A stretch of 64,000 bases of DNA from Candidatus Omnitrophota bacterium (GTDB lineage: Bacteria; Omnitrophota; Gorgyraeia; JABMRG01; JAFGKX01): contig JAZDPX010000012.1 in the NCBI GenBank assembly GCA_043797125.1, forward strand, positions 24,376 to 88,375, read 5' to 3'. Of this stretch, positions 59,098 to 64,000 are shown one piece after another. Positions within the stretch are counted from its first letter, which is position 1. Every line of letters starts with the position of its first letter. The translations under genes were made by a program, and so were the position numbers. Under the pieces are notes generated by a model. It was not told the origin of the DNA. It saw only the letters and a program-made list of their open reading frames with translations, and did not search any database.

Positions 59098-59498
59098 CAC
59101 AGCCAAGTTTAGAATCATTAGAGCCCTATGGCTGTGCCGGGTGGCATAGTCATAGGGTTTTCTGTTTACGGGTCCTTGGAAGCCGGTGTCGGGTGAGGGT
59201 CGGGCGAGGCGCGGGTTGTCAGTGATTATGGTCAAAAAAATCGATGACAATGTCAATTCAACGGGTGTCTTGGGCATCTATGGTCAGATTGGCTGGAATG
59301 AGCGTTCCCAGACGGTAAACAAGCGACTTTCGGGGTGTCCTGCAGGCGGTCGGGGTCGTCAAAAAGGGCGTTTTTGAGTGACATGGATGGACATTTGGTG
59401 CGTTGTATAAACGTTATGCGATTGTAACTGTAGGCGGTACTTTTGATGAACGAAAGTACAGCAAGATTTGGGTGAATTTTAATGCTCACTTTAGGCTA

Positions 59499-59565
59499 AT
59501 GTTCACTAAACAGTGAACATTGTTGCGCGAACATCGTGTCAGAAAAAGCATATAGTTTTTCTGAC
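59499..59565 (+). promoter_or_regulatory. candidate operator boxes: palindrome ATGTTCAC-N6-GTGAACAT, a third GAACAT half-site, and perfect IR GTCAGAAAAA-N8-TTTTTCTGAC
   Basis: Perfect 8-bp arms at 59499-59520. Extra half-site at 59530-59535. 10-bp arms at 59538-59565. All lie just upstream of the XRE gene promoter. Confidence 0.45.
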
Positions 59566-59597
59566 AAGGCCAATCCTGTTTTGCTGGCTGTTTTTGA

Positions 59598-59626
59598 TTG
59601 ACTCCCAATGCTTTTCGTGCTATAAG
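59598..59626 (+). promoter_or_regulatory. sigma70-type promoter for the XRE regulator operon
   Basis: TTGACT (59598-59603), 17-nt spacer, TATAAG (59621-59626). RBS AGGAGA and ATG at 59655. Confidence 0.45.
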
Positions 59627-59654
59627 ATGCAATATGCGCAATAGGAGAATAACT

Positions 59655-59891
59655 ATGATAAACACAGGAGCAGGGCATATGGATATCATAAAAAAATTAG
59701 AGCTGTACCGTCTTGAGAACAAGATCACACAGCAGGATTTAGCCAAGGAGCTGGGTGTTGCTTTTTCGACCGTGAGCCGATGGTTTAACGGCAAGACCGT
59801 TCCCAGTAAAATCCAGCAGTATCATGTCGAGAAGTATTTAACCAAGAAGAAAATAACATTTTCGGCTAAGAGCGTAAAAGAGGTCAAGTAA
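59655..59891 (+). CDS. XRE-family HTH transcriptional regulator (controller C-protein-like)
   Basis: HTH_3 motif ITQQDLAKELGVAFSTVSRWFNG. About 78 aa. The ORF-track start 59598 lies upstream of the predicted promoter. Confidence 0.7.
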   Translation: MINTGAGHMDIIKKLELYRLENKITQQDLAKELGVAFSTVSRWFNGKTVPSKIQQYHVEKYLTKKKITFSAKSVKEVK

Positions 59892-59892
59892 G

Positions 59893-61341
59893 ATGAAATA
59901 TAAAATCTTTGTCAGTGGTGCACAGAAGGAGTTGAAGAAAGAACGCCGGGCAGTCAAAGAGTTTATCCGTAAGGATGCGCTTTTATCAGAATATTTCGAT
60001 GTTTTTCTTTTTGAGGATTCTCCCGCCAAGAGTAAATCAGCCGAAGTAGCTTACATCGAAGAAGTCCGCAAAAGCGACATTTACATCGGCATTCTCGGAC
60101 AGCAATATGGCGGCTCCGGAAAAGAAAAGATGTCGCCGACAGAAGCAGAATTCCGCGAAGCCAAGGTGAAACACAAGGAAATATTGATCTATATTAAAGG
60201 TCAAAACACCGCAGATAAGCTCCGTGACGGTGGTATGCAGGAATTTATAACGGAAATTAAAAATCCGAAGGCAGGGTACAGTTATGGAAGATTTGATACT
60301 GCTACCGAATTAACCAATCTGGTTTACGAGAGCCTGATATCCTTTCTTAAAGAAAAAGGTGAGATTGGAAAGGCGGGATTTGATCAACGAATTTGCGAGG
60401 GGGCTAAGCTATCCGACATTGACGAGAATAAGGTTAAATGGTTTTTAAAGACAGCGCGGTCAAAACGTAATTTCCCGCTTGGGTTGGATGCTTCCGTGAC
60501 CGACATTTTTATTCATTTGAAACTACTCAAGGACGGTAAGCTGACTAATGCCGCCATTTTATTATTCGGCAAGAATCCGCGAAAGTTTTTTGATCAGGCA
60601 AAGATCAAGTGTGTGCAATTGCCCAGCACTGAGGTCGTGAAGCCGTTTTCGTCGTATCATATTTATGAGGAAGAAAACCTCTTTGAACAAGTCGATAAGG
60701 CAGTATCGTTTGTTTTGGATGCCATTAAATTTCCTGTCATTCAACAATCGCATACAGTGCAGGTAGCGCGGCCTCGTGAGATACCTGAGTTTGCTATCCA
60801 TGAAGCAATCGTTAATGCTGTAGCGCATCGTGATTACAATACAACGTCATCTGTTCAGGTGATGGTTTTTCTCGATCGCGTTGAGATATGGAATTCCGGA
60901 ACGCTTCCCGGGAATCTCAAAGTGGAGGATCTAAGAAAACCACATTCTTCACATCCGTCAAATCCGACGTTAGCGAGTGTTCTATTTTTTGGAGACTATA
61001 TACAACAGGTGGGATCCGGCACAACGGAAATGATTCGACAGTGTAAAGAACATGGACTTCCGGAGCCGGAGTTCATTTCAGTGCGAAATCTTGAGTTTAA
61101 GACGATACTGGCAAGGGATGTCTTTACGGAAACTAATCTTGCCCAAATGGGGCTTAATGACCGTCAGGTTAAGGCTATCAAGTATATCAAGGAGCATAGG
61201 CAAATTTCGCGTAAAGACTATGTTAGTTTGGTATCTATATCTCCTCGGCAAGCTCTAATTGATCTCACAGAACTGGTAGAGAAGAAAGTCTTAATATTGA
61301 TAGGCAAGGGAAGATCGTCTAAATATACATTGCGCAAATAA
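59893..61341 (+). CDS. DUF4062 - AlbA_2 (Schlafen-like divergent AAA) - HATPase_c_4 - wHTH protein, putative defense/regulatory ATPase
   Basis: N-terminus KIFVSGAQKELKKERRAVKEFI is DUF4062-like. Middle region has the AlbA_2 pattern. C-terminus GSGTTEMIRQCKEHGLPEPEF is the HATPase_c_4 signature, followed by a winged helix. Confidence 0.7.
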   Translation: MKYKIFVSGAQKELKKERRAVKEFIRKDALLSEYFDVFLFEDSPAKSKSAEVAYIEEVRKSDIYIGILGQQYGGSGKEKMSPTEAEFREAKVKHKEILIYIKGQNTADKLRDGGMQEFITEIKNPKAGYSYGRFDTATELTNLVYESLISFLKEKGEIGKAGFDQRICEGAKLSDIDENKVKWFLKTARSKRNFPLGLDASVTDIFIHLKLLKDGKLTNAAILLFGKNPRKFFDQAKIKCVQLPSTEVVKPFSSYHIYEEENLFEQVDKAVSFVLDAIKFPVIQQSHTVQVARPREIPEFAIHEAIVNAVAHRDYNTTSSVQVMVFLDRVEIWNSGTLPGNLKVEDLRKPHSSHPSNPTLASVLFFGDYIQQVGSGTTEMIRQCKEHGLPEPEFISVRNLEFKTILARDVFTETNLAQMGLNDRQVKAIKYIKEHRQISRKDYVSLVSISPRQALIDLTELVEKKVLILIGKGRSSKYTLRK

Positions 61342-61412: not shown

Positions 61413-62114
61413 GTGAAGGAAAGAAAAGCGACAGGTATAAAGACTTGGCCGGAGGATGATAGGCCGCGTGAGAAGTTGCTCAAGAAGGGTGCAGGGGCTT
61501 TGAGTAATTCAGAGCTTCTGGCTATTCTTCTTCGCACCGGCACGCAAGGCACCAGCGCAATTGACCTTGCTCGCAAGGTTTTGAAGAAATTCGGCACGTT
61601 CCGGAACATGGCGCATACGGATTCGCGCGATTGGAAGGATCTCAAGGGTTTAGGCGGGGCTAAGATTGCCCACATTCAGGCCGCGCTTGAAATCGGGCGG
61701 CGCTATCGCGAGGACGATGTGTCCACCGGGAAGCAGAAGATCGCCTCTGCCAAGGATGTTGTAGATATCGTCATGCCTCAGCTCCGCGACCTTAAGACGG
61801 AGGTGTTTAAGGTCGTTTACCTTGATAGTAATAACCGTATTATCGACATCGTGGATACCGCGGTTGGAACCGTTGATCAGGCATTCCCGATTGTCCGTGA
61901 AATAATCCACGCCGCCTTGCAGAAATTCGCGAAATCAATCGTTTGTGCTCACAATCACCCATCTGGCGAGGTTAATCCAAGCCGGGGCGATATCACTTTT
62001 ACGAATGAGCTTTATAACGCTGGGAAACTTATGCAGGTCGATATTTTGGATCACCTCATAGTAGGAAATGACAAATTTTACAGTTTTGCCGATGAAAATA
62101 AACTTGTAAGTTGA
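61413..62114 (+). CDS. radC: RadC-like JAB/MPN domain protein
   Basis: Helix-hairpin-helix [18 protein letters not shown] motif [14 protein letters not shown]. Stop overlaps the hsdM start region. Confidence 0.85.
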
Positions 62115-62128
62115 GGGAAGGGAATACT

Positions 62129-63679
62129 ATGGCACAAAATCATATAGCAGAGCTTGAGAAGCGATTGTGGGCGGTGGCTGACGAGTTACGAGCCAATTCT
62201 GATTTAAAGGCATCCGAATATTCAGCGCCAGTATTAGGGCTAATCTTTTTAAGATACGCAGATTATCGTTTCACCAAGCAAGAAAAGATACTCTCCGAGA
62301 AATCTACCAGCCGCAGAAAAATTAGTAAAACAGATTACCAAGCCGCAGGCGTTATGTATTTGCCTGATGAAGCGCGCTTTGCTTTTCTGTTGAACTTGCC
62401 GGAAGGTGCGGATATCGGCAAAGCGATCAATGAAGCTATGAAAGCGGTTGAACGCGAAAACGAAGACCTCAAAGGCATTCTTCCTAAAACGTACAACAGA
62501 TTTGACAACAACCTTTTGGTTGAACTGATTAAATTAATGTCATCAATTAAGGAAGATATCGAAGGTGATGCTTTCGGGAAAATTTATGAGTACTTCTTGG
62601 GTGAGTTTGCCATGACCGAAGGACAGCAAGGCGGGGAGTTTTTTACGCCGACTTCTGTTGTCAAATTGATCGTTTCAATTATCCAGCCGTTTCACGGGAA
62701 AATATTTGATCCGGCATGCGGATCGGGCGGTATGTTTGTCCAGAGTGCTGAGTTCGTAGAGGAGCACAAAAAGAAAGCCGTTGATGAGATTAGTATTTAT
62801 GGGGAGGAAAAAACGCGGGAGACGGTCAATCTCTGCAAAATGAACTTAGCGGTTCACGGATTATCGGGTGATGTTCTGCAGGGGAATTCTTATTATGAAG
62901 ATTTGCACAATATGGCTGGTGCATTCGACTTTGTCATGGCCAATCCTCCATTCAACGTCAATCGCATTGATAAAGATCGGATCAAGAATGACCGCAAGCG
63001 ATTTCCGTTTGGAATGCCATCGGCAGATAATGGCAATTACCTTTGGATTCAACTTTTTTACAGTGCGCTGAATGAAAAGGGGCGGGCAGGGTTCGTTATG
63101 GCCACTTCAGCAAGCGATGCCCGTGGAAGCGAGCAAGAAATCCGAAAGAAGTTAATTGATGATAAGACGGTAGATGTAGTGATAGCAGTTGGGTCGAATT
63201 TCTTTTATACGGTCACTTTGCCGGTGACACTGTGGTTTCTCGATAGGGCTAAAAAGAAAAGCGATCGCAAAGACAAAGTGCTTTTTATCGATGCTCGTAA
63301 AATCTTTAATCAGATAGATAGAGCCCATCGGGAATTCTTACCCGAACAGGTAGAGCTTATCGCAAATATTGTCAGAATGTACCGCGGTGAAAATATCGAA
63401 ATAGAACATGGTAGTGAAAAATTCATGAAGGAAAGCTTCCCGAAGGGAAGGTATCAAGATATTACCGGTCTGTGCAAGGTAGCTACCTTGAAGGATATTG
63501 AAGAATTAGGTCTCAGTTTAAATCCCGGTCGATATGTTGGGATAGTTGAGGATGAACGAGACGGTTTTGATTTTAAGGAAAGATTAGAAGTGCTGAATGA
63601 GGAATTGCAGACACTAAATGTTGAGGCGAAAGAGCTTGAGGGGACAATTTCTGAGAACATAAGCAAGATATTGGGTTAA
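62129..63679 (+). CDS. hsdM: type I restriction-modification system DNA methyltransferase subunit
   Basis: HsdM N-terminal domain ([11 protein letters not shown]), SAM motif DPACGSGGM, catalytic NPPF (VMANPPFN). Start set at ATG 62129 (RBS GAGGGAAGGGAA). Confidence 0.9.
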
Positions 63680-63681
63680 AC

Positions 63682-64000
63682 ATGATGCAGTACAAAACTA
63701 TTGATGACATAGCATTTATCAATCCCGACTCGATCAAGCGGGGGTATCCTCATAATGATATCGAATATATCGATATTGCTTCTGTTGGTTCCGGGAATTT
63801 GATGAAAACCACATCAATCACTTTATCTGAGGCATCGAGCAGGGCTAAACGTTTGGTAAAAAATGGCGACACTATTTTGTCTACAGTGCGGCCGAATCGA
63901 CGGTCTTTTTTATATGTTAAAAAGCCAAAGGATAATATTGTCGTATCAACTGGCTTCGTGGTGTTGAGAGCTAAGAATGGGACGGACCCGAGGTATTTGT
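63682..64000 (+). CDS. hsdS: type I restriction-modification specificity subunit HsdS (3' partial)
   Basis: ATG follows directly after the hsdM stop. The frame is open to the window edge. Target-recognition-domain-like N-terminus; TVRPNRRSFLYV...STGFVVLRAK is typical of HsdS. Confidence 0.7.
   Translation, partial: MMQYKTIDDIAFINPDSIKRGYPHNDIEYIDIASVGSGNLMKTTSITLSEASSRAKRLVKNGDTILSTVRPNRRSFLYVKKPKDNIVVSTGFVVLRAKNGTDPRYL

Follow-up and report, generated by a model that had tools for sequence, protein, structure and literature searches.

A DUF4062 domain in place of the Schlafen nuclease on a GHKL-winged-helix chassis: a predicted abortive-infection protein beside a type I restriction-modification operon in Candidatus Omnitrophota

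In the genome of a Candidatus Omnitrophota bacterium, a gene for a protein of 482 amino acids (aa) lies between a small helix-turn-helix (HTH) gene and a type I restriction-modification (RM) operon headed by RadC, which raises the question of what the protein does and whether its function is tied to restriction. We analyzed this gene (59893..61341, + strand) in a window of 64,000 nucleotides (assembly GCA_043797125.1, contig JAZDPX010000012.1, positions 24,376 to 88,375); coordinates without a locus handle refer to this window. The open reading frame (ORF) was confirmed as real exactly where an initial annotation had placed it, and a protein deposited from a Candidatus Omnitrophota metagenome-assembled genome (MAG) was 100% identical to its product. 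That annotation had described a four-module protein (DUF4062, Schlafen-like AlbA_2, HATPase_c_4, and a winged helix) as a candidate defense or abortive-infection component. The reading we favor, at a probability of roughly 0.55, is that the protein is an ATP-gated NAD+ hydrolase (NADase), made as a single polypeptide and activated by oligomerization, which would act in abortive infection.

Two of the proposed modules were recovered directly by Pfam. DUF4062 (PF13271) scored 68.0 bits at residues 4-90 (cutoff 24.7), a match that spans the whole profile (positions 1-82 of 82), and HATPase_c_4 (PF13749) matched residues 319-403 with 68.5 bits against a cutoff of 26; the string GSGTTEMIRQCKEHGLPEPEF, quoted earlier as the signature of the latter, was found at residues 374-394. 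The C-terminal winged helix was supported by the structure model (predicted local confidence, pLDDT, 85-91) and is of the MarR/DeoR type, although the Pfam match to DIP2311-like_C reached 14.4 bits, under its cutoff. This tail is also homologous to the HTH_DeoR/HTH_11-positive tail of a sister protein, P0123. In the structure model, residues 1-154 form a single TIR-like domain of flavodoxin fold, with five parallel strands and helices on the flanks, and the GHKL region gave fold matches to PDK4 and to histidine-kinase ATP-binding domains. It is very likely that the protein consists of three modules: a DUF4062 effector, a linker with a GHKL switch, and a winged helix.

The Schlafen core, the remaining module of the initial annotation, was not found. 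PF04326 (SLFN_AlbA_2) gave no match in the protein at E<=0.1, compared with 81.8 bits in P0123. The Ex4(D/E)xK and SAFAN motifs were absent from residues 100-300, the sole motif match being located within DUF4062, and no SLFN structure was present among the top 50-60 fold matches. In addition, hhalign of the protein family against 34 SLFN-type proteins aligned the C-terminal ~350 columns (E 5e-103, 48% identity) and left the N-terminal domains unaligned. Since PF04326, a nuclease motif outside DUF4062, an SLFN fold, and an alignment to SLFN were all lacking, we conclude that this is not a Schlafen protein. A Schlafen/AlbA_2 nuclease between DUF4062 and HATPase_c_4 would give each chain two effectors, a TIR-like domain and a tRNase, and could be read from the match of residues 160-410 to PADLOC models from SLFN-pAgo and its relatives, as well as from the top structural match, 3LMM, an AlbA_2-containing structure. 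However, model positions 176-437 of the PADLOC SLFN-pAgo model align with residues 162-409, downstream of the N-terminal SLFN part. Only ~140 residues separate residues 1-154 from the GHKL N-box, and all of them match the linker that follows SLFN in Schlafen proteins. The domain, motif, profile, and fold tests refute the four-module architecture, and its likelihood is practically nil.

Instead, DUF4062 stands where the Schlafen nuclease sits in proteins of the Schlatpase-HTH class, as a replacement and not as a fusion. Residues ~159-482 share 48-50% identity with SLFN-type proteins. P0123, a canonical Schlatpase-HTH protein (SLFN_AlbA_2 at residues 9-113, GHKL at 285-370, then HTH), is 50% identical over the module, with homology from its residue 126 onward. 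With residues 155-482 alone as the chassis query, a search of a representative library of 1.84 billion proteins yielded 11,063 representatives (E<=1e-3); in nearly every one of the best 150, an N-terminal domain of ~125-170 residues precedes the match. Among these 150, which are cluster representatives at 50% identity, 61 begin with DUF4062, 40 with SLFN, and none with both, while 49 are truncated or effector-less; the fusion to DUF4062, which had been called unusual, is thus common among the closest relatives. Pfam annotation of 94 full-length chassis members identified HATPase_c_4 in 93, DUF4062 in 49, and SLFN_AlbA_2 in 35, as well as an alternative Fic-like_C winged-helix tail in 29. In a neighbor-joining tree of the shared module, which has no bootstrap support and is indicative only, the two types formed largely separate clades with at least 6 effector switches (27.7 expected with shuffled labels), and the closest neighbor of our protein was the SLFN-type P0123. 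These results indicate that DUF4062 and SLFN effectors have been swapped several times on the same GHKL-winged-helix chassis.

Several further observations concern the chassis. Two PADLOC models of Argonaute-associated SIR2 proteins, PDLC02402 (Aga_SIR2-PNTD1-PNTD2) and PDLC02418 (Aga_SIR2-Kinase-PNTD1-PNTD2), match residues 159-385 with E values of 2.7e-14 and 2.6e-10, which suggests, at the level of sequence, that a SIR2 NADase may be a third effector on a related chassis. In P0121, a protein of 2,918 aa with 47% identity to the module, there are two SLFN domains, and the GHKL-winged-helix module is repeated in tandem, with at least two complete and two partial copies; such a protein could be a giant polyvalent Schlatpase, or else a product of mis-assembly or gene-call fusion. 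Many near relatives (P0122, P0133, P0149, P0158, and others; P0122 with 333 aa and 56% identity) begin at the linker and have no N-terminal effector; these could be fragments from contig edges, or forms that truly lack the effector or are split. A second SLFN_AlbA_2 + GHKL gene (L082:2435-3415) lies 6 bp 3' of the P0123 gene, so that the 3.4-kb P0123 contig holds tandem Schlatpase paralogs and not the cassette of our protein.

Both halves of the protein belong to families with described defense functions. DUF4062 has been shown experimentally to be a TIR-like NADase defense effector in two preprints (10.64898/2026.05.01.722283, 10.64898/2026.06.25.731849). In the same preprints, the Swarozyc protein KpSwz depletes NAD+ in abortive infection and requires both E97 and its AUX region for defense, this AUX having an HTH/winged fold that binds the phage portal, a protein rather than DNA; Evangelion Eva01 is a plasmid-borne, single-gene system of DUF4062 and AUX; and all three DUF4062 proteins assayed so far (KpSwz, human TEP1, and Eva01) deplete or hydrolyze NAD+. 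As for the chassis, bacterial Schlafens are tRNase defense effectors with fused sensors, most commonly HisKinase (34%) and HisKinase-HTH (19%) (Nature Microbiology, PMC13056530). SLFN with PF13749 GHKL has been named the 'Schlatpase' supradomain, in which ATP binding leads to tetramerization and effector activation, in which E314 and N318 of RzAgo (SLFN-pAgo) coordinate Mg-ATP, and in which more than 90% of the tails carry a C-terminal HTH (10.64898/2026.05.29.728809). The earlier statement that AlbA_2/HATPase_c_4 proteins have no assigned function is accordingly out of date (PMC13056530; 10.64898/2026.05.29.728809).

Members of the Schlatpase-HTH class combine PF04326, PF13749, and a C-terminal HTH, and the class includes COG2865, 3LMM/DIP2311, the 'pSlfn HisKinase-HTH' proteins (PMC13056530), and the RzAgo supradomain (10.64898/2026.05.29.728809). 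Our protein shares with them the PF13749 GHKL domain after the linker, the Glu and Asn for Mg-ATP, and the C-terminal HTH, whereas its effector is a TIR-like DUF4062 domain without Schlafen tRNase, Ex4(D/E)xK/SAFAN, or PF04326. The expected output would be NAD+ depletion, not tRNA cleavage, and activation of a TIR-like domain through assembly would differ geometrically from the rebuilding of a bilobed SLFN nuclease. With Swarozyc and Evangelion (Eva01-04), it shares the N-terminal DUF4062 core, the catalytic Glu-aromatic dyad, the N-terminal Phe, the union of effector and AUX in one polypeptide, and the occurrence in mobile elements and defense islands; the AUX of KpSwz likewise includes a winged-helix fold. 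In contrast to the short, non-enzymatic AUX of Eva01 and KpSwz, the corresponding part here is a GHKL ATPase and winged-helix chassis of ~325 residues, and because of this difference ATP dependence is expected only for our protein.

The residues on which catalysis and ATP binding would depend are conserved. BLASTP of the first 160 residues against Eva01, the 324-aa DUF4062 protein of plasmid pMW2, gave 29% identity to its core (E 1e-9); E86-F87 lines up with the mutagenized catalytic dyad E87-Y88 of Eva01, and F6 with its F11. All 55 homologs at 65-100% identity have the same residue at F6, S8, E86, E304, N308, G374, and G376. In the alignment of the 94 diverse relatives, a single column is invariant, that of the GHKL Glu, and the Asn four residues on comes close to it; E304-x3-N308 corresponds to E314/N318 of RzAgo. 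Since the catalytic Glu and the aromatic residue of DUF4062 are strictly kept, a catalytic role can be argued, and NAD+ hydrolysis is somewhat favored as its chemistry on the strength of the assayed relatives. Within the close family, pairs of sequences are on average 71% identical in DUF4062, 76% in the linker, 80% in GHKL, and 48% in the winged helix, the fastest-evolving part of the protein.

We propose the following mechanism. In the resting state, the TIR-like domains would be held apart or autoinhibited. A phage cue would be read by the chassis, most likely through binding of a phage protein or nucleic acid by the winged helix, and the cue together with ATP binding at GHKL would drive formation of a dimer or tetramer, a step that we put forward tentatively. 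The assembled DUF4062 domains would then take up an active arrangement and hydrolyze NAD+, and the loss of NAD+ would stop both the infected cell and the phage. This assembly-gated model is the most economical one because the relatives of the effector need assembly, the relative of the chassis tetramerizes with ATP, and the variable winged helix resembles the phage sensor of Swarozyc. The eukaryotic DUF4062-NACHT proteins (TEP1, NWD1, NWD2, and NPHP3) and the bacterial TIR-STAND/Avs-like proteins similarly place an N-terminal TIR-like or DUF4062 domain on an ATPase whose oligomerization is proposed to activate the effector; however, their ATPase belongs to the STAND P-loop NTPases, carries repeat sensors, and has a fold with no relation to that of the Bergerat GHKL domain, and these proteins are several times larger.

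A number of points weigh against this model. The confidence of the structure model is moderate (mean pLDDT 72, with weak loops at residues 245-254, 280-294, and 350-375), and the N-terminal domain matches NDT-family N-glycosidases (BcmB and MilB) as well as it matches TIR NADases, so that the fold leaves the substrate of DUF4062 unsettled. The Q/W/E motif of Evangelion (Q50-W51-E52 in Eva01) is not kept; our protein has A50-E51-V52 and the family consensus is KSKSAE. As this motif is conserved among Evangelion lineages, the protein is a DUF4062 protein but not a typical member of the Evangelion clade, and its activity could differ. PADLOC (2023) contains no model for the protein, nor does NCBIfam, in which our search returned no match, so that its defense status is by analogy. 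Furthermore, the chassis tree carries no support values, most homologous loci are short MAG contigs that make the neighborhood statistics rough, and by single-sequence phmmer the HTH gene or RadC occurs in only about a quarter of the loci and hsd genes in ~14%. The equal match to NDT-family enzymes allows DUF4062 to be pictured as a nucleotide N-glycosidase like NDT, BcmB, or MilB, or else as a TIR-type synthase of a nucleotide messenger. Such a chemistry appears quite unlikely, as KpSwz, human TEP1, and Eva01 all act on NAD+, and the homologous loci hold no conserved partner gene able to read a signal.

The family is large and horizontally spread, and its surroundings bear on the defense role. 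The protein gave 2,630 matches at E<=1e-5, of which the best 120 are all full-length with 65-100% identity and come from Omnitrophota, Elusimicrobiota, and Poribacteria. We retrieved 68 genome loci, with Planctomycetota, Nitrospirota, Patescibacteria, Clostridia, Woesearchaeota, and Methanobrevibacter as further hosts, and analyzed 63 non-redundant loci (L handles), many of them short. ORF calling in these loci gave antisense artefacts, one of which masked the HTH gene; HTH counts were taken from direct phmmer matches. Among 150 neighbors no more than two genes away, we found RadC (10), HTH_3 (10), TPR/NB-ARC (3-5), TOTE primase (2), N6_Mtase, ResIII, Resolvase, HEPN, and Bro-N (3 each), as well as AbiEi and type I, II, and III methyltransferases. 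Homologs accordingly adjoin RadC, type I RM, STAND NTPases, HEPN, AbiEi, CD-NTase-like genes, serine recombinases, and TOTE primases. The association of homologs with defense loci, whose absence would have counted against the initial annotation by its own account, was thus present, as was one with mobile elements. Together with the DUF4062 NADase preprints, these neighbors back the general idea of a defense or abortive-infection component in an RM-rich setting, and a defense role of the protein is probable.

Table 1. Coordinates of the modules of the DUF4062-GHKL protein and of neighboring features in the window.
Feature	Coordinates	Strand	Evidence
Perfect 10-nt inverted repeat AATGTTCACT-N4-AGTGAACATT, candidate operator upstream of the promoter	59498..59521	.	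Repeat search
Perfect 11-nt inverted repeat TGTCAGAAAAA-N8-TTTTTCTGACA, candidate second operator or terminator of upstream transcription	59537..59566	.	Repeat search
Promoter-like element: TTGACT (59598-59603), 17-nt spacer, TATAAG (59621-59626), then ATGCAATATGCGCAA (59627-59641)	59598..59641	+	Conservation only
70-aa Xre/Cro-type HTH_3 protein	59679..59891	+	Pfam HTH_3 E 2.5e-11; AGGAG ribosome-binding site at 59666-59670
DUF4062 TIR-like domain, predicted NAD+ hydrolase effector (residues 1-155; catalytic E86 at 60148-60150; F6)	59893..60357	+	
Linker and N-terminal subdomain of the GHKL chassis (residues 156-298), the supposed AlbA_2 of the initial annotation	60358..60786	+	Homology to post-SLFN segment, hhalign
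GHKL (Bergerat-fold) ATPase core, PF13749 (residues 299-410); N-box E304 (60802-60804) and N308 (60814-60816); G-box G374/G376	60787..61122	+	Pfam, conservation, fold
C-terminal winged helix-turn-helix (residues 411-482 and stop), probable specificity/sensor element	61123..61341	+	
RadC (UPF0758_N + JAB domain), first gene of the hsd operon	61413..62114	+	Pfam RadC E 1.2e-38; NCBIfam NF000642 235.9 bits
HsdM, type I RM methyltransferase	62111..63679	+	Pfam N6_Mtase E 2.6e-85 + HsdM_N; PADLOC MTase_I E 2e-219
Probable 5' part of hsdS, cut by the window end	63682..64000	+	Position directly after hsdM; weak BLASTP

The immediate neighborhood in the window agrees with the placement given in the initial annotation, hsdS being only probable (Table 1). 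The stop of the HTH gene ends 1 bp ahead of the ATG of our gene, RadC starts 71 bp downstream, and hsdM overlaps the RadC gene by 4 bp. The candidate hsdS fragment (320 bp to the window end) gave no Pfam match and a weak BLASTP match (E 0.006) to the second target recognition domain of the confirmed HsdS of L014; the context beyond the window end is inferred from L014 and L016. The apparent left boundary of the island is at ~59.1 kb, after a DsrE-like gene, and the right boundary is beyond the window. No tRNA was found near 59 kb of the window. A 15-nt imperfect inverted repeat (59124-59157, 87% complementary) just after the DsrE-like gene, at the apparent left edge, may be a terminator or a junction.

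The HTH gene starts at ATG 59679, as in all homologous loci; the 97-aa ORF listed at first began at TTG 59598, which is part of the -35 hexamer. The promoter-like element is kept in all 14 HTH-carrying loci, whose flanks are otherwise unrelated and which also share the AGGAG ribosome-binding site; a consensus promoter scan did not flag it, since TATAAG ends in G. The palindrome at 59498-59521 occurs in the equivalent place 5' of the HTH gene in L012, L016, L047, L052, and L054 and is replaced by a different one (GTTCTAT..ATAGAAC) in L032, L045, L053, and L060; that at 59537-59566 is common to L014 and L016, with related TGTCACAAAAA-type palindromes in L045, L047, and L052. These repeats are candidate operators or, for the second, a terminator. 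The 70-aa Xre-type protein is the probable transcriptional controller of the cassette, which would be expressed from the conserved promoter with this repressor probably keeping the toxic effector low wherever it is present.

The same pair may be viewed as a toxin-antitoxin module, in which the HTH protein would directly neutralize the DUF4062 NADase and the pair would mainly stabilize its mobile element. Xre antitoxins pair with NAD+-degrading RES toxins (Xre-RES, and likewise the NAD+-degrading MbcA-MbcT), a precedent for this idea. The 1-bp gap suggests translational coupling, the cassette is found in integrative elements and plasmids, and the HTH protein is extremely conserved over divergent partners: it is almost unchanged (about 137 of 145 bits) in loci whose effector protein has only ~35% identity (L060 and L063). 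However, this invariance beside a diverging partner fits an operator-tied DNA-binding controller better than a co-evolving antitoxin. Moreover, the HTH gene abuts our gene in only 14 of 56 loci with sufficient upstream sequence, and its lack in the other 42 and in the Legionella copies implies that the effector is tolerated alone. Direct neutralization is thus very unlikely. Because linkage is facultative, an obligate toxin-antitoxin pair was rejected as a general explanation, as was an obligate RM accessory.

The link to restriction is recurrent but facultative; constant linkage to hsdM, hsdS, and hsdR was not found. In 13 of 49 loci (11 of 32 for the close family), RadC occurs within 3 kb of the gene, on one side or the other: it is located either downstream as the head of the hsd operon or immediately upstream with its stop overlapping the start of our gene (L007, L026, L030, and L048). 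Seven of 49 loci have hsd genes at a distance of up to 6 kb. The gene order is HTH-target-x-RadC-HsdM-HsdS-HsdR in L014 and L016 (target denoting the homolog of our gene), and KAP NTPase-HsdR-HsdM-HsdS-unknown-RadC-target in L007. In L001 and L063, HTH-target precedes a large serine recombinase, and RM is absent. In our locus, the cassette would have landed immediately upstream of the RadC-hsdM-hsdS operon.

PrrC offers a precedent for a guard of restriction: this anticodon nuclease is encoded inside the EcoprrI hsd locus, held latent there, and activated by T4 Stp. By analogy, HsdM/HsdS, perhaps with RadC, would hold our protein inactive until a phage anti-restriction protein releases NAD+ destruction. 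Such a guard fits the position of the gene within or abutting complete type I RM operons (the window, L014, L016, L007, and L030), with RadC bridging the two through stop/start overlaps on either side, and in Poribacteria a Schlatpase module that is >60% identical is reported as a fusion with a type I HsdS subunit, physically coupling the chassis to RM (10.64898/2026.05.29.728809). On the other hand, the scarcity of nearby hsd genes, the HTH-target cassettes of serine-recombinase elements without RM, the solitary homolog beside parB on 13 Legionella plasmids, and the single-gene function of the characterized DUF4062 systems make this guard unlikely. Like our protein, PrrC of the type Ic EcoprrI locus is an abortive-infection effector gene within an hsd operon, but it is a tRNase of the ABC-ATPase-like kind whose reliance on RM, both physical and functional, is documented, while most homologs of our protein have no neighboring RM. 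The earlier suggestion of an accessory that modulates restriction does not hold as a general rule for the same reason, the Legionella plasmid copies being solitary.

RM genes often require controlled expression, and the protein could be imagined as a non-defense regulator, an ATP-dependent DNA-binding protein controlling, for example, the hsd operon, with a ligand-binding or inactive DUF4062 domain. The MarR/DeoR-type winged helix and public annotations such as 'predicted HTH transcriptional regulator' and 'ATP-binding protein' agree with this. Nevertheless, the catalytic Glu and aromatic residue are strictly kept, the same chassis bears an active tRNase in relatives (PMC13056530; 10.64898/2026.05.29.728809), and the winged-fold AUX of Swarozyc binds a phage protein, not DNA. 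The neighborhoods are also heterogeneous, with no constant regulated target, and a dedicated HTH regulator is already alongside, so that a purely regulatory function is of very low likelihood.

Some loci have features of their own. In L014, whose locus is closely related to that of the window, two tandem hsdM genes (L014:12794-14287 and L014:14284-15762) precede hsdS and hsdR, and a conserved 256-aa protein without a Pfam match lies between HsdS and RadC (L007:6525-7295, also in L008-L011 and L023). In L012, a RhuM-family gene (E 4e-113) and a large serine recombinase (L012:563-3285) lie immediately 5' of the HTH-target-x-RadC cassette, which is therefore placed inside an integrative element. 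In L030, an SMODS/Mab-21 (CD-NTase-like) nucleotidyltransferase gene (L030:8311-9297) is directly 5' of the RadC-target pair and downstream of HsdM and HsdR, an island that may combine CBASS-like, RM, and DUF4062 genes. Disrupted copies were seen in four of ~45 full-length homolog loci: L045:948-2386 and L045:4857-6124 are both frameshifted (identity falling from 92% to 73% past the frameshift), L048:10001-11439 and L050:5405-6839 are frameshifted, with identity likewise falling past each frameshift, and L024:5797-7239 has an internal stop. Possible origins are decay of a toxic gene into pseudogenes, recombination into mosaics, and errors in MAG assembly.

Thirteen conjugative plasmids from Legionella pneumophila, L. 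anisa, and L. hackeliae, among them pLPP from strain Paris, carry a DUF4062-GHKL-Fic-like_C homolog with 42-44% identity. It is a solitary gene adjacent to parB (one copy is L081:6989-8503 = NZ_CP021280.1 46058-47572; WP_106315017.1). Some Legionella records split it into two coding sequences ('ATP-binding protein / DUF4062 domain-containing protein'). This homolog offers a culturable model for the family. In the Evangelion survey, 2.9% of 447 Legionella plasmids, about 13, were positive (10.64898/2026.05.01.722283, 10.64898/2026.06.25.731849), and since this matches the 13 found here, the lineage was probably already counted there without being described.

The combination itself is undescribed in the literature searched. 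The Swarozyc, Evangelion, pSlfn, and SLFN-pAgo texts and one supplementary file do not mention DUF4062-GHKL, and the Swarozyc and Evangelion preprint texts with one supplement contain 0 occurrences of HATPase, GHKL, Schlafen, or an ATPase-type AUX. Our literature search on a RadC + type I RM unit, or on COG2865, Schlatpase, or HATPase_c_4 with DUF4062, returned nothing relevant. As both halves belong to known families, the novelty lies in DUF4062 and Schlafen as alternative effectors on one chassis of ~50% identity.

These results show that two defense families described only in 2026, the DUF4062 NADases (Swarozyc and Evangelion) and the Schlatpase proteins, share one scaffold, and they correct a tempting misannotation of the linker subdomain as AlbA_2/Schlafen. 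The architecture extends to at least 61 clusters at 50% identity, in many bacterial phyla, some archaea, and Legionella plasmids. A more far-reaching and improbable view is that of an effector-agnostic GHKL-winged-helix infection sensor bearing Schlafen, DUF4062, and possibly SIR2, whose RM-embedded copies with RadC would guard restriction as PrrC does and fire when a phage disables it. If the chassis were such a general sensor, sensing specificity would reside wholly in it and be transplantable between effectors, and if the RM-embedded copies were guards, COG2865-type genes in hsd loci would be explained as anti-anti-restriction surveillance. Our protein and P0123 form a natural effector-swap pair for asking whether chassis or effector sets sensing, and the recurrent linkage with RadC and type I RM could be a sign that restriction and abortive infection cooperate. 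For proteins now labelled 'ATP-binding protein', 'DUF4062 domain-containing protein', or 'predicted HTH transcriptional regulator', the predicted ATP-gated activation of a TIR-like NADase, unlike the portal-templated assembly of Swarozyc or STAND-driven assembly, would provide a concrete and testable mechanism.

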